This document shows positions 29,972 through 51,053 of a stretch of 64,000 bases of DNA, in pieces. Within the stretch, counting starts at the first letter, position 1. Every line of letters starts with the position of its first letter. The notes beneath the pieces were generated by a model. That model made no database searches, was not told where the DNA came from, and saw nothing but the letters and a program-made list of their open reading frames with translations. This DNA comes from Escherichia coli (lineage in GTDB: Bacteria; Pseudomonadota; Gammaproteobacteria; Enterobacterales; Enterobacteriaceae), in NCBI RefSeq assembly GCF_024502345.1, contig NZ_JALDNN010000001.1; one strand, 5' to 3'. Both the position numbers and the translations under genes were made by a program.

Positions 29972-29989
29972 CCTACATTTAAATGTAGG
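29972..29989. repeat. 18-bp perfect palindrome at the mutS-proximal island junction
   Basis: cctacatttaaatgtagg is its own reverse complement; overlaps the 11-bp sequence tgtaggttaaa (29984-29994) repeated at 50655-50665. Confidence 0.5.
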
Positions 29990-30073
29990 TTAAAGTGTAG
30001 CTTGCCAACCTATAGCTTGGTAAAATATGGGCACATACAGCACAACCTATATTTATGTTCATGACTGCATAAG

Positions 30074-31375
30074 GTGCATGATAACGGAGTCTTTATGGCA
30101 GGAAAACAAGAGGGAAAGCCACTTTCGTTTAAAGGGGTAGAAATGATGAAGCCAGGCGATAAAGATAAGGCTGATGTAGGCGAAAATCGTGGCTTACGTG
30201 TCTCCTGTGGTGCAACTGGTGTTAAGTCTTTTTTCTACCGTTACACAAGTCCTCTGACTGGCAAACTTGCTCAGGTTAAAATTGGTAACTTCCCGCAGAC
30301 TTCTCTCGCCGCTGCACGTCTTAAACTTCATGAATTAAAGCTCCTCCGGCAGGAAGGTCGGTGCCCTGCGTCAGAGCTTAAGCAAGATAAGCTCCAGCGT
30401 GCGATTGAAGCTGAACAGGCTAAGATCCCTGAATTGACCGTACAGGGATTAGTTGAACTGTATCTTACTGAACGTATTGAGGATCGTAAAACGAAGGACG
30501 GGAAGGTCATTCCCGGTGCCAGAAAACCGAAAGGACAGGCTGAGGTTCGTCGTACTCTCTATGGTGACGCTGTTAAAAGTTTAGGAACCCGGAATGCTGC
30601 TGAGATAACGCGCCAGGATGTTATTAATTTAATCAATGGCATTGTAGCTCGGGGCGCAACCGTACAGGCAGGGAATGTACTGAGAGAACTTTCACTCGCA
30701 TATGAATTTGCAATTGGACTTGGGCGCTTTGATGACAGTTTTGCGAATCCAGCGCTGTTAGCAAAATCTAGCTTACGACAGACCAGAATCAAGCTCACAA
30801 ATGGACGTGGAACACGAGTACTGAGTGAGGACGAGCTTGCAAAATTCCTTAAATGGCTACCGGGTTCGGCTTACACGCCAACGATCAAAAACGTGTTACG
30901 TCTGACTCTCTGGACCGGGTGTCGTACCGGTGAAGTCTGCAATATGGCATGGAAGGATGTTGATCTTGAAAAAGGCACCATTCATCTTAGAGAAACCAAG
31001 ACTGGAGTAGAGCGTTACGTTCAGTTATCGGATCAAGCGATCGACTTTCTCAAGGTTCTACGCCTTACCTCTGACAAATATCTATTCCCTTCACAAGCCA
31101 CTAAAAAGCCAATCCAGCAGAAGTATCTAACTGAAAACTCATGGCGTTTACGTGAAAGCGGTCAAATGCTTGATATACCTCATTGGACGCCGCATGATCT
31201 GCGTCGTACAGTACGAACGGGCTTATCTCGTTTGCAGTGTCCAAATGAGGTGGCTGAGGCCGTATTGGGGCATACACGAGGCGGTGTTGAAGGGATTTAT
31301 AATCTGTATAAGTATGATGCTGAGTGTAGGAAGTGGTTGCAGGTGTGGGCGGATTATTTAGATACTTTAACGTAA
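30074..31375 (+). CDS. Tyrosine-type integrase, P4-like family
   Basis: 433-aa ORF; C-terminal catalytic region with R...HDLRRT...LGH...Y pattern (TPHDLRRTVRTGLSRL, LGHTRGGVEGIYNLY). Confidence 0.85.
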   Translation: MHDNGVFMAGKQEGKPLSFKGVEMMKPGDKDKADVGENRGLRVSCGATGVKSFFYRYTSPLTGKLAQVKIGNFPQTSLAAARLKLHELKLLRQEGRCPASELKQDKLQRAIEAEQAKIPELTVQGLVELYLTERIEDRKTKDGKVIPGARKPKGQAEVRRTLYGDAVKSLGTRNAAEITRQDVINLINGIVARGATVQAGNVLRELSLAYEFAIGLGRFDDSFANPALLAKSSLRQTRIKLTNGRGTRVLSEDELAKFLKWLPGSAYTPTIKNVLRLTLWTGCRTGEVCNMAWKDVDLEKGTIHLRETKTGVERYVQLSDQAIDFLKVLRLTSDKYLFPSQATKKPIQQKYLTENSWRLRESGQMLDIPHWTPHDLRRTVRTGLSRLQCPNEVAEAVLGHTRGGVEGIYNLYKYDAECRKWLQVWADYLDTLT

Positions 31376-32161
31376 TTTGCCAATTAGATGTCCAATCATT
31401 TCGTTACATCAAAGTTGTGCTTAATTTTTATTTTATAAGGATAATATGGATATTTTTTCTGGAGAATCAATTCTTTCCCAAGTCCCTGATGTCAATCATT
31501 GGTTAGCTTCTTACGGCTTGAATTCAACTACATCAAGATATAGCAGATATATCTCTTATATTGATGCTTTTTTTGAGTCGAAAGATCCCACCTCATCTGA
31601 TGGAAGAGACAAATTTGATTTATTAACCAAGTCGTATGCAGAAATTATAGAAATAGTCAGCGTTAAAAAAGCGTTTGAACATGAAAGAAGCCCCGGATTT
31701 ATTGAGCGTTTAAGTAAGGTTGTTTCTGGAGTTGATCATGTTGGTATTAAAGAACCCAGTGAGCCAAGGAATTTTCTCTACGAATTACTTATGGCTGCCC
31801 GGCTAAAAAATGCTGGCTTTATTATTGATTTTGACCAAGGAACTGATGTTGTCGCATATGGATTTGGTCGTGCTATTTTCGTTGAATGTAAACGCACAAC
31901 ATCAATAAGAGGGTTCGAATCTAATTTCATTAAAGGTGGAAAGCAATTAGAGAGAAAGTTTAAGAGTACGAAACTTCCCCATTTTATGATTCGGGGATTT
32001 ATTGCTATCGATGTTTTACCATATGTATTGAACGATATTCCTAAATTTGAAATAGATAATGAAATGGAAGCTCGCATTTGTGCCAGGATAGTGATGGAAC
32101 GTTTTAAGCAAGATGCAAGTAGGCATATTAATAAGTATATATCACGTTATGAAAATGTTAG

Positions 32162-33356
32162 GGAAGGTGCGAACAAGTCCCTGATATGAGATCATGTTTG
32201 TCATCTGGAGCCATGGAACAGGGTTCATCATGAGTCATCAACTTACCTTCGCCGACAGTGAATTCAGCAGTAAGCGCCGTCAGACCAGAAAAGAGATTTT
32301 CCTCTCCCGCATGGAGCAGATTCTGCCATGGCAAAACATGGTGGAAGTCATCGAGCCGTTTTACCCCAAGGCTGGTAATGGCCGGCGACCTTATCCGCTG
32401 GAAACCATGCTACGCATTCACTGCATGCAGCATTGGTACAACCTGAGCGATGGCGCGATGGAAGATGCTCTGTACGAAATCGCCTCCATGCGTCTGTTTG
32501 CCCGGTTATCCCTGGATAGCGCCTTGCCGGACCGCACCACCATCATGAATTTCCGCCACCTGCTGGAGCAGCATCAACTGGCCCGCCAATTGTTCAAGAC
32601 CATCAATCGCTGGCTGGCCGAAGCAGGCGTCATGATGACTCAAGGCACCTTGGTCGATGCCACCATCATTGAGGCACCCAGCTCGACCAAGAACAAAGAG
32701 CAGCAACGCGATCCGGAGATGCATCAGACCAAGAAAGGCAATCAGTGGCACTTTGGCATGAAGGCCCACATTGGTGTCGATGCCAAGAGTGGCCTGACCC
32801 ACAGCCTGGTCACCACCGCGGCCAACGAGCATGACCTCAATCAGCTGGGTAATCTGCTGCATGGAGAGGAGCAATTTGTCTCAGCCGATGCCGGCTACCA
32901 AGGGGCGCCACAGCGCGAGGAGCTGGCCAAGGTGGATGTGGACTGGCTGATCGCCGAGCGCCCCGGCAAGGTAAGAACCTTGAAACAGCATCCACGCAAG
33001 AACAAAACGGCCATCAACATCGAATACATGAAAGCCAGCATCCGTGCCAGGGTGGAGCACCCATTTCGCATCATCAAGCGACAGTTCGGCTTCGTGAAAG
33101 CCAGATACAAGGGGTTGCTGAAAAACGATAACCAACTGGCGATGTTATTCACGCTGGCCAACCTGTTTCGGGCGGACCAAATGATACGTCAGTGGGAGAG
33201 ATCTCACTAAAAACTGGGGATAACGCCTTAAATGGCGAAGAAACGGTCTAAATAGGCTGATTCAAGGCATTTACGGGAGAAAAAATCGGCTCAAACATGA
33301 AGAAATGAAATGACTGAGTCAGCCGAGAAGAATTTCCCCGCTTATTCGCACCTTCC
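32162..33356 (+). mobile_element. IS5 insertion sequence, complete 1195 bp, flanked by 4-bp target duplication TTAG
   Basis: terminal inverted repeats ggaaggtgcgaacaag (32162-32177) and cttattcgcaccttcc (33341-33356); TTAG at 32158-32161 and 33357-33360; encodes InsH. Confidence 0.95.
32230..33210 (+). CDS. insH: IS5 transposase InsH
   Basis: 326-aa [39 protein letters not shown]... matching the IS5 transposase as I recall it. Confidence 0.95.
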
Positions 33357-49599: not shown

Positions 49600-49770
49600 T
49601 TGTTTATCTTTCTGATAATGGGGTTGTCCGTTAGCCAACCTGATATATTGCTTAAAGGGCTTGCCCGATGAGTGAGCCTTTGACGGGGCTTGATATGAAT
49701 TTGCGTAGAAGTTTTGGTATACTGTTTAAACGATGTCTTTCAGCCCAGATTCAACTTCTTAGGAGTGATT

Positions 49771-49941
49771 ATGAGCACCCACAAAAAAACTCAGGCAAGC
49801 TACGCTAAGCCATCTCGTGCTGACATTGTTCGCTCAGTAGCAACATCTACGGCTGTTGAAACAGGGCAGTCCTCCGCGAAGATCGAAGCTTCACTTGAAG
49901 CCACGCGCAAAAAATTTGCTCATTTGCGTCTTGCGGTTTAA
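49771..49941 (+). CDS. Small hypothetical protein (56 aa)
   Basis: ATG 49771 preceded by aggagtg RBS; convergent with and overlapping the 3' end of fic by 4 bp. Confidence 0.3.
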   Translation: MSTHKKTQASYAKPSRADIVRSVATSTAVETGQSSAKIEASLEATRKKFAHLRLAV

Positions 49942-50555
49942 TCCCTTCTTAATGCTTCTCGCACCCAGTGTTTCATCGGCTCATAGTCCATTGATATGCC
50001 AGCATGGATGGCCGATATATACTGAGTTTTGTTTTGCTCCCAGCTTTGATAATCCAGCGGTTTGTATCCTCCCTGAACGGCCATCACGTCGGCTAGCAGT
50101 CGCGACAGGCGTCCGTTTCCCTCTCTGAATGGATGGATAAGTATTATCTCTACATGGGTTATGGCGATAGCGGTGATGAGTTGTTCTTCGTCCATGCCGC
50201 TACACGGTGTGTATTGAGCCAGATACTTAGTGTCGAATTCGTTCAGCAGTTTTGGCACCTGCGCTGAGGGGGCAAACATAAAGCCGCCTTTGCTAATATT
50301 CACCGCTCTTTCTTGTCCAGCCCACTCGTAGATGTTACCTAACCAGCGGCGATGCCAGCTTTTTAGCATGGCTACGCTGAGCTGTCCTTCCGGGAACTGC
50401 TCTTCAAAAACAGACTGGTAGAGTTGTTCTAACAGGACAAGTTCAGCCTCATCCATCTCATCAGAAGTCGCAATCCCCAGCTTATTAGCCAAAACCTGCT
50501 CGCCAGAGTCTTTCTCATACTGGCCTTCACTGCTGGATACATGGTATCGGCTCAT
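49938..50555 (-). CDS. Fic/Doc-family protein (probable AMPylase/toxin)
   Basis: 205-aa ORF with canonical Fic motif HPFREGNGRLSR. Confidence 0.85.
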   Translation of the reverse strand: MSRYHVSSSEGQYEKDSGEQVLANKLGIATSDEMDEAELVLLEQLYQSVFEEQFPEGQLSVAMLKSWHRRWLGNIYEWAGQERAVNISKGGFMFAPSAQVPKLLNEFDTKYLAQYTPCSGMDEEQLITAIAITHVEIILIHPFREGNGRLSRLLADVMAVQGGYKPLDYQSWEQNKTQYISAIHAGISMDYEPMKHWVREALRRD

Positions 50556-51053
50556 GGAGATGCCCTGTGTTATTAGAAGGAGGGGAAAACAGAGAGAGTA
50601 TAACGCTGGATGAGTACAGCAAACAATATTCTTAAAATCAGATAGTTACAAAAGTGTAGGTTAAAATGTATTTTTTATTCTCTGGTGGAAAATAATCTTT
50701 AATAATCAGCATTAACACACCAATGCATCATGGGCGTATGGGCGTCGAAATTTTCTATTGCACTCATGGGGTTATGTCCGGTTCCCTGATATTAAATGGG
50801 GTGTGATGGTTTTTATTTTCGTTGTAATCACATAAGGCGCACATGATACCGGAGTTAATCATTTCAGGGGAAGAAGCGAACGGCGAGTTCTTGATGTTGG
50901 TTCCGGGAAAGATGCTGTTTTGCAGCTTTTGCGTGATGCTTATGAAGCAAGTACGCAAAATTGCGTCGGTTGAATAAACCTCCTCCTTCAGAGCCATAGT
51001 CCCCTTTCAAATTAAGTTGTAGTATAAATACACCTTAAGAGTATGGAGGCAGT

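Follow-up and report, generated by a model that had tools for sequence, protein, structure and literature searches.

The 64-kb window analysed here, a stretch of the Escherichia coli contig NZ_JALDNN010000001.1, contains a horizontally acquired, integrase-bearing island that is inserted within the coding sequence of mutS. The island spans 29845-50734 (20,890 bp with one core copy counted). We are highly confident that it is one integrative mobile element, not two, and that it belongs to the mutS-targeting class described by Chu et al. (2017). Beyond this assignment we suggest, tentatively and with slightly more doubt than conviction, that it represents an undescribed family of self-replicating integrative defence islands that would be widespread in Enterobacterales and Morganellaceae. 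Members of this family would resemble pipolins, carry a Rep_trans-like nickase and a family-A-like polymerase of ~490 amino acids (aa), exchange their integrases (targeting mutS, yicC and others) and the content of a defence slot (HsdMS-PtuAB, type I restriction-modification (R-M) or Gabija), and, where they enter mutS, bring this gene under element control. The integration biology is not new; the predicted Rep/Pol backbone is the part that may be. All features are listed in Table 1.

Integration within the mutS coding sequence

The genes mutS and ygbA are neighbours in K-12 but lie ~21 kb apart in the window. The initial annotation, made from the sequence alone, had recorded both gene positions and their separation, and these are borne out by the open reading frames (ORFs) and by the comparison with K-12. 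Its borders at 29972 and 50665, which placed the insertion between the two genes, had to be revised. Alignment with the empty site of K-12 matched the left side through the 11-bp core TGCATCATGGG at 29834-29844 and the right side from 50724-50734 onward. Hence, the former positions are not junctions, and the insertion is inside mutS, whose first 11 codons and upstream region have been replaced. From the core onward, the sequence at the attR side is identical to K-12. The core lies within mutS codons 12-15 (CCC-ATG-ATG-CA on the mutS strand), corresponding to P-M-M-Q of the HTPMMQQ motif. In three relatives, attL reads TGCATCATtGG and attR reads TGCATCATgGG; because of this base difference, strand exchange is placed within the 8 bp TGCATCAT (29834-29841, codons M-M-Q). 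A single-base difference in mutS (K vs R at residue 19), 19 nt beyond the core, was considered as a sign of a wider exchange and rejected as a host polymorphism. Strain KMi029 carries an identical island with the K-12 base at this position, and the host of the E. coli 536 element shares the base of the present genome.

The 11-mer tgtaggttaaa (TGTAGGTTAAA) had been proposed as the attachment (att) core. Both of its copies (29984-29994 and 50655-50665) and the 18-bp perfect palindrome CCTACATTTAAATGTAGG (29972-29989) are present as described, but the copies are internal to the element, at distances of 139 bp and 58 bp to the core, and the motif is wholly absent from the K-12 empty site. Among shuffled sequences, at least two matches with one mismatch allowed were obtained in 17 of 100 for the 11-mer and in 54 of 100 for the core. 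As neither repeat is improbable by count, the empty-site alignment and the conservation in relatives decide the att core. The largest direct repeat across the region is formed by the two mutS start copies (29834-29886 and 50724-50776), which are 81% identical over 53 nt. ARAGORN finds no tRNA gene in the window, in line with the earlier observation at the junctions. This is not the anomaly it was taken for, as the integrase clade is mutS-specific and the class is already published (PMC5296598).

The resulting mutS gene is chimeric and intact. The native leader codons 1-11 are found at the other end of the element (50735-50767); together with the core (50767-50724), they encode MSAIENFDAHTPMM and then run out of frame. 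The element-borne region 29845-29950 and the native region 50735-50830 are ~65-80% similar over a stretch of ~90 bp past the start codon, as can be seen at TGGTTTTTAT and GTGATGTCC. This similarity suggests that the element has captured the mutS 5' region of an enterobacterium and does not bring an unrelated promoter. Integration may affect mutS expression. A simple sigma-70 scan was uninformative, with zero promoters in the element-borne and in the native mutS upstream regions; the promoter swap is thus deduced from structure only, which counts against this part of our interpretation.

The corrected att site puts integration into the coding start of a mutation-rate gene, and carriage or loss of the element would swap the mutS promoter region. 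In E. coli, control of the mutation rate may thus be tied to a mobile element, which can be tested.

The outer integrase and its distribution

The P4-type integrase at the mutS side, int1, was called correctly in the initial annotation. Its catalytic residues R, K, HxxR, H, and Y are all intact, it is separated from mutS by 217 bp, and it is 58% identical to the N-terminal part of the integrase of the E. coli 536 mutS element. Close relatives (62-98% aa identity) occur in ~25 Enterobacterales species. All 17 loci of other species which have a full-length int1 gene and upstream DNA carry mutS upstream of int1 in divergent orientation. The distance from the core to the int1 start is 260-263 bp in 14 of 16 other species, and the host mutS has the element-type leader in each. 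In Yersinia, the same right arm is followed by an orphan leader of the Yersinia type. In Klebsiella and Lonsdalea, int1 is 97-98% identical, while the MutS N-terminus is 84-98% identical (84% in Lonsdalea). The contrast between int1 and MutS in Lonsdalea indicates horizontal transfer, and so does the occurrence of the island in unrelated sources, given below.

Of the 5,426 complete E. coli genomes surveyed, ~96.6% have an empty site, which supports the proposal of a horizontally acquired island at this locus. The match to the empty site breaks at the core in ~184 genomes (3.4%), which is an upper estimate of occupancy by any element. The int1 lineage was found in 13 genomes, in 12 of them visibly at mutS. 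The present island, without its IS5 copy, occurs in five: four at 100% identity, from river water, a human and two frog species, and a fifth at 96.9%. A well-preserved mutS-targeting lineage thus moves between enterobacterial genera and only rarely reaches E. coli.

A predicted replication module

Downstream of alpA are two genes for large proteins, p371 and p494, for which we propose functions on the basis of structure prediction.

p371: This protein is predicted to be a Rep_trans-like rolling-circle initiator or nickase. The AlphaFold model, built from 19 homologues, has a predicted local distance difference test (pLDDT) value of 78 and adopts the Rep_trans fold. The invariant residues are D32, D159, EGLRLGS...Y202-x-K204, and RLE235LR, which occur in the same order as the catalytic motifs of Rep_trans/MOBT proteins. 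In the latter, motifs N', I, and IV contain the three acidic residues, and motif III has the catalytic Tyr with an essential Lys at position +2 (PMC6499999).

p494: The C-terminal half is predicted to be a compact family-A-like DNA polymerase and the N-terminal half is winged-helix-like. The model has a pLDDT of 85, the PolA fold was recognised by two methods, one of them Foldseek, in which the top 45 matches agree (best E = 6e-5). Invariant segments are YD298...QLEILR, LQGLES, and EHD472G. We take YD298, LQGLES, and EHD472G to resemble Klenow motif A, the QG(T/S)AAD segment and motif C, respectively. D298 and D472 would then presumably be equivalent to D705 and D882 of Klenow.

Several points weigh against these assignments, which derive from predicted folds. 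Neither protein has matches in Pfam, NCBIfam, PADLOC, or among PDB sequences. For p371, comparison with PF02486 gave no Pfam match even at E <= 10, and the PDB sequence search was empty. For p494, comparison with DNA_pol_A was negative in Pfam, in a PDB profile search and in an HHalign alignment to the Klenow domain; the Foldseek TM-scores (template modelling scores) are low (~0.3).

The order opposite-strand ORF, AlpA, Rep-like, and Pol-like is constant across genera while the downstream cargo changes. Hence, these genes belong to the backbone and not to the defence cargo. We also considered p494 as a component of the HsdMS-PtuAB system; this was rejected because the gene stays after Rep when the cargo is a full type I R-M system or Gabija. 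With AlpA, the predicted nickase and polymerase may form a replication and/or mobilisation module of the excised circle. An incomplete literature search found no paper on a PolA-like polymerase in such islands. The p371 and p494 families, which have no Pfam domain and are almost always named 'hypothetical protein', would gain a functional reading. If the Rep and Pol readings are true, self-replication in the manner of pipolins would apply to many enterobacterial 'defence islands'; this would help to explain the persistence and spread of islands which have neither conjugation nor phage genes.

Proposed mechanism and route of transfer

In the mechanism that we propose, int1 would recombine attP of the element with attB inside mutS, within the 8 bp given above. 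As attP brings a mutS-like leader and upstream region of its own, mutS remains intact upon integration. Its first 11 codons and its promoter region are exchanged for the element-borne ones, and the native leader and promoter are displaced by 20.9 kb to a place beside ygbA. Precise excision would restore the native mutS in frame, with CTGCTGCATCATGGGCGTATGG as the rejoined attB, and would likely require int1 together with the AlpA regulator/excisionase. The layout of the element consists of int1, slot 1, a core of Ner-like, RadC, DUF2787 and int2 genes, AlpA-Rep-Pol, slot 2, and the Fic end. Two points weigh against this proposal: excision products are not visible in the sequence, and the element has no conjugation, relaxase-accessory or capsid genes that would provide a transfer route.

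The transfer route is the only respect in which our explanation differs from that of a phage satellite (PICI-like or P4-like), which would be induced by a helper phage, replicated and packaged; the two agree on integration. An integrase, AlpA and replication genes are the core signature of Gram-negative phage-inducible chromosomal islands (PICIs), and this combination is seen here, with the replication genes predicted. Typical PICIs have ~10-15 kb, and the element is with ~20 kb somewhat larger. The weak match of p494 to the phage family phrog_30690 and the defence cargo, as in P4-like satellites, also fit. However, no capsid, packaging-redirection, cos/pac or helper-interference genes were recognised in the element, PHROGs gave no structural matches, and the predicted Rep is of the Rep_trans type and not the primase-helicase which is typical of PICI or P4. 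We therefore consider a satellite unlikely.

One element with a conserved gene order

The second tyrosine recombinase, int2, is present as initially annotated, with intact catalytic residues. It had been taken as the head of a second module behind int1 and module 1, and a composite of two elements integrated in tandem could account for two intact tyrosine recombinases and for the location of AlpA in the second half. Such an arrangement should leave traces between the halves, but the element contains no third att core, even with one mismatch, and no internal mutS fragment. The relatives at mutS in E. coli have the same gene order and differ in two slots only. The full order is also conserved in Yersinia pseudotuberculosis, MB06233, and Serratia. 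In Y. pseudotuberculosis, where it is kept at about 30-60% protein identity, it comprises integrase, cargo, Ner-like, DUF2787, RadC, int2, the opposite-strand gene, AlpA, p367, p490, HsdM, HsdS, PtuA, PtuB, the 56-aa ORF, and Fic. In five other genera, including Lonsdalea, Atlantibacter, Yersinia, and Serratia, int2 (46-54% identity) directly follows RadC in an operon-like manner. The same backbone including int2 is found behind other outer integrases at yicC-dinD (KFu019) and dhaR-ychF (SCU-484), and the junction of truncated CbtA, DUF905, and int2 occurs at three chromosomal sites with different outer integrases.

Some observations count against a single element. A Providencia relative has the AlpA-Rep-Pol-cargo-Fic half without RadC and int2, and in OW1E2, the whole middle of the element is missing, next to IS3. 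Given these losses, int2 would be dispensable for maintenance and could be a secondary acquisition; according to the pipolin authors, the inner IntP2 of pipolins may likewise have been acquired later (PMC11551731). In addition, DNA similarity to the relatives ends ~175 bp past int2. The sequence beside int2, however, shows lineage-level similarity within E. coli only, with no candidate recombination site kept across genera, and module 2 with an int2 edge against host DNA was never found alone among the loci compared. We therefore regard two tandem elements as very unlikely and retain the reading as one element.

Least probable of all is an immobile remnant, fixed in few lineages and spread by homologous recombination of the mutS-fhlA region: the rarity (12 of 5,426 genomes), the IS5 insertion, the truncated and fused CbtA gene, the IS-mediated decay in OW1E2, and the recombinogenic mutS-rpoS neighbourhood (PMC5296598) would fit, but neither AlpA nor either of the recombinases is damaged, strong purifying selection acts on the two arms in different genera, the identical island of KMi029 (L001) resides on a different mutS allele background, and only site-specific integration explains an almost unchanged int1 in Klebsiella and Lonsdalea, always at the same 8-bp site and with the orphan leader of the respective host.

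Two of the strains mentioned above show further details. In KFu019 (L007 9435-26474), the backbone and HsdMS-PtuAB cargo are located behind a different P4-type integrase, between yicC and dinD; in Shewanella, an island is known to use yicC as its target (GI21, PMC8978831). In SCU-484, the dhaR-ychF island, which is otherwise unrelated and degenerate, has the backbone with int2, flanked by RADAR and DarTG. The same island contains a 466-bp match (L009 34137-34601) to 50267-50732, comprising the 5' part of Fic and the right arm. This piece stops exactly at the att core and lies between IS copies.

Relation to known integrative elements

mutS elements: In Vibrio splendidus, Chu et al. (2017, mBio, PMC5296598) found mutS to contain a mobile element which has its own promoter and start codon. 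Hundreds of putative elements that they reported from Beta- and Gammaproteobacteria use the HTPMMQQ motif as insertion site, with V. splendidus 12B01, E. coli 536, P. putida F1, and B. multivorans CF2 as members. The present element shares with them the insertion in HTPMMQQ, the element-supplied start and upstream region, the distal orphan host leader, and an integrase no more than ~300 bp away from mutS. That study does not describe a second recombinase, an internal replication module or a defence slot. The E. coli 536 element has the same left boundary of the identity block TGCATCAT but belongs to a different lineage, 14.8 kb long and decayed, with a truncated integrase, a reverse transcriptase, and IS copies. 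Its excision was detected by polymerase chain reaction and left no scar (PMC5296598). As the core in the present element is a perfect in-frame repeat, a 2-bp scar is not expected either, unlike in 12B01.

The 536 integrase (L008 14977-15726) has only 249 aa, comprising the DUF4102/arm-binding part without a catalytic domain. Since the 536 element nevertheless excises, a trans-acting integrase may be responsible.

Pipolins: Gammaproteobacterial pipolins (Mateo-Caceres & Redrejo-Rodriguez 2024, PMC11551731) are alike in having an outer SXT/P4-type integrase, DUF2787, and the orphan core genes. By gene order, they also share the inner recombinase followed by an excisionase beside a DNA polymerase gene, and the bimodular layout with a variable defence module which exchanges type I R-M and Fic-type systems. 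They differ in their hallmark, the family B polymerase piPolB, and in their target, tRNA-Leu; here, a family-A-like fold, a Rep_trans-like protein and mutS take these places. WYL and UDG genes were not recognised in the element. As piPolB is absent, the element is not a pipolin, but by analogy, it may be the 'piPolB-less, pipolin-like island' which is mentioned, uncharacterised, in PMC11551731.

Rep_trans/MOBT proteins: RepD/RepSTK1, NicK of ICEBs1, and RelSt3 (PMC6499999, PMC5357655, PMC7563843) resemble p371 in the predicted fold, in Y-x-K and the three acidic residues, in the motif order N', I, III, IV, and in the location beside an excision regulator in an integrative element. The N-terminal helix-turn-helix (HTH) of MOBT relaxases is missing from p371. 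These proteins were described mainly in Firmicutes, whereas the hosts of p371 are Enterobacterales.

SXT/R391: As in the present element, the SXT/R391 elements use a tyrosine integrase to enter the 5' coding end of a housekeeping gene; the target differs, and conjugation genes are lacking here. SXT is a self-conjugative element of ~100 kb. Hochhut and Waldor reportedly found in 1999 that this integrative and conjugative element enters the 5' end of prfC and supplies a replacement 5' end and promoter, by which prfC remains functional.

Element arms

The left arm starts with the substitute mutS leader and upstream region and continues with a conserved block (29972-30010). This block contains the palindrome, one copy of the 11-mer, and GTGTAGC (from 29996), and a degenerate inverted copy is found near 30046. 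Within it, CCTACATTTAAATGTAGGTTAAAGTGTAGCTTGCCAACCT is the most conserved left non-coding stretch among four elements which differ by 5-13% in flanking DNA. In the right arm, 127 nt are 93-98% identical across the E. coli relatives and Yersinia. For the E. coli and Y. pseudotuberculosis elements, the value is 98%, whereas many proteins of the same pair are only 30-60% identical. GTAGGTT is invariant ~70 bp inside the right end in four elements. Given this conservation, the 11-mer motif can be taken as genuinely functional, though as a part of attP. For the TGTAGGTT-type repeats and the palindrome, the likeliest role is that of arm-type sites for the integrase or of binding sites for AlpA or another regulator.

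Backbone genes, cargo slots and defence operon

Table 1 Features of the mutS element and its junctions in the window
Feature	Position	Strand	Basis and remarks
mutS	27316-29877	-	Intact 853-aa ORF; codons 1-11 (29845-29877) element-borne, remainder host
attL core TGCATCATGGG	29834-29844		K-12 alignment; left boundary common to E. coli 536 element
Element left arm	29845-30094		Substitute mutS leader and upstream region (to ~29950), then conserved block
int1, outer P4/SXT-type tyrosine integrase, mutS-specific clade	30095-31375	+	426 aa from ATG; GTG 30074 possible
Variable slot 1, 294-aa cargo gene split by IS5	31446-33529	+	Intact in KMi029 (L001 4569-5453)
IS5, 1195 bp	32162-33356	+	Transposase 32194-33210; TTAG duplications 32158-32161 and 33357-33360
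Leftward backbone operon: Ner/SfsB-like HTH_35 regulator and three unknown proteins	33776-35491	-	Conserved in relatives
Rightward backbone genes: two unknown proteins, RadC/JAB (36681-37202), DUF2787 (37290-37721)	35553-37721	+	Homologues
CbtA toxin-DUF905 fusion, single ORF	37865-38482	+	CbtA_toxin 1-111/112, 3.7e-39; DUF905 2e-27
int2, inner XerC-like tyrosine recombinase, 315 aa	38577-39524	+	XerC 9e-36; catalytic residues intact
171-aa protein	39824-40339	-	Syntenic 164-222-aa gene always on opposite strand, between int2 and alpA
AlpA-family excisionase/transcriptional regulator	40546-40752	+	phrog_66, phrog_2790; homologues PF05930
p371, predicted Rep_trans-like rolling-circle initiator or nickase	40854-41948	+	Predicted fold; 364 aa, ORF from GTG 40833
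p494, predicted family-A-like DNA polymerase	42302-43786	+	Predicted fold
Variable slot 2, defence cargo hsdM-hsdS-ptuA-ptuB	43923-49599	+	PADLOC matches
hsdM	43923-45458	+	MTase_I 3e-190
hsdS	45458-47143	+	Specificity_I 8e-114
ptuA	47153-48757	+	PDLC00293 2e-215 over 1-532
ptuB	48751-49599	+	PDLC00343 1e-99 over 3-280
Conserved right end: 56-aa ORF (49771-49941, +), Fic/DOC (49938-50555, -)	49771-50555		PDC-S04 1e-101
Element right arm, including TGTAGGTTAAA at 50655-50665	50556-50723		Conserved in E. coli relatives and Yersinia
attR core TGCATCATGGG	50724-50734		Direct repeat, K-12 alignment and relatives
Orphaned native mutS leader and native mutS/ygbA intergenic promoter region	50735-51053	-	Translation; identity to K-12
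ygbA	51054-51407	+	Neighbour of mutS in K-12

The cargo assignments of the initial annotation (the IS5-split gene, the Ner-like HTH protein, RadC, CbtA, AlpA, hsdM-hsdS-ATPase-HNH, and Fic) stand. The cargo is AT-rich, with 40-45% GC compared with 50-57% in the flanks.

Defence operon: The four genes of slot 2 are tightly packed, with a stop-start overlap of hsdM and hsdS at 45458 and an overlap of ptuA and ptuB by 7 nt (48751-48757). PtuA (ATPase) and PtuB (HNH) are adjacent and match the PADLOC models of Septu nearly end to end. HsdM and HsdS match the models of type I R-M systems, but there is no HsdR ORF in the island. Because the four genes are tightly packed in one operon, we consider HsdM-HsdS-PtuA-PtuB a candidate methylation-linked Septu variant, and as an operon without HsdR, it is of interest in its own right. 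The only hint of a known association is a match below the cut-off to TIGR04435, 'restriction system-associated AAA family ATPase'. A description of an HsdMS-PtuAB operon was not found in the main texts searched, nor was any mention of mutS as a hotspot in the survey of E. coli defence islands. The identity of the E. coli and Yersinia proteins is 90% for HsdM, 35% for HsdS, 41% for PtuA, and 30% for PtuB. In relatives, slot 2 contains a complete type I R-M system (PEC122) or a PIN protein with Gabija.

The latter was seen in Providencia stuartii (L096 12875-18374), where the slot after the PolA-like gene holds a PIN-domain protein and Gabija, consisting of an OLD-TOPRIM ATPase and a UvrD helicase. 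In this relative, a P4-type integrase lies beyond Fic in the opposite orientation.

Slot 1: The content of this slot differs among relatives. The 294-aa gene has no family match in Pfam, NCBIfam, PADLOC, or PHROGs and is, from its position, a candidate unknown defence gene. Its IS5 copy is found only in the present strain and is missing from the five otherwise identical islands.

Backbone genes: The HTH_35 regulator of the leftward operon (35213-35491) matches SfsB (3.7e-23) and is followed by proteins of 175, 172, and 109 aa; PADLOC gave no matches for the proteins of this operon. The backbone proteins of no named family, including the 171-aa protein, had no matches in any library searched. 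The 171-aa protein may be a regulator.

CbtA: The YeeU/CbeA antitoxin gene is missing from the present island and is kept in PEC122 (L002 9766-10131). The CbtA part is annotated as a pseudogene by RefSeq in all relatives.

Right end: Fic corresponds to the PADLOC candidate PDC-S04 and is 97% identical at the aa level to the Yersinia copy. The pair of 56-aa ORF and Fic is always located at the right end.

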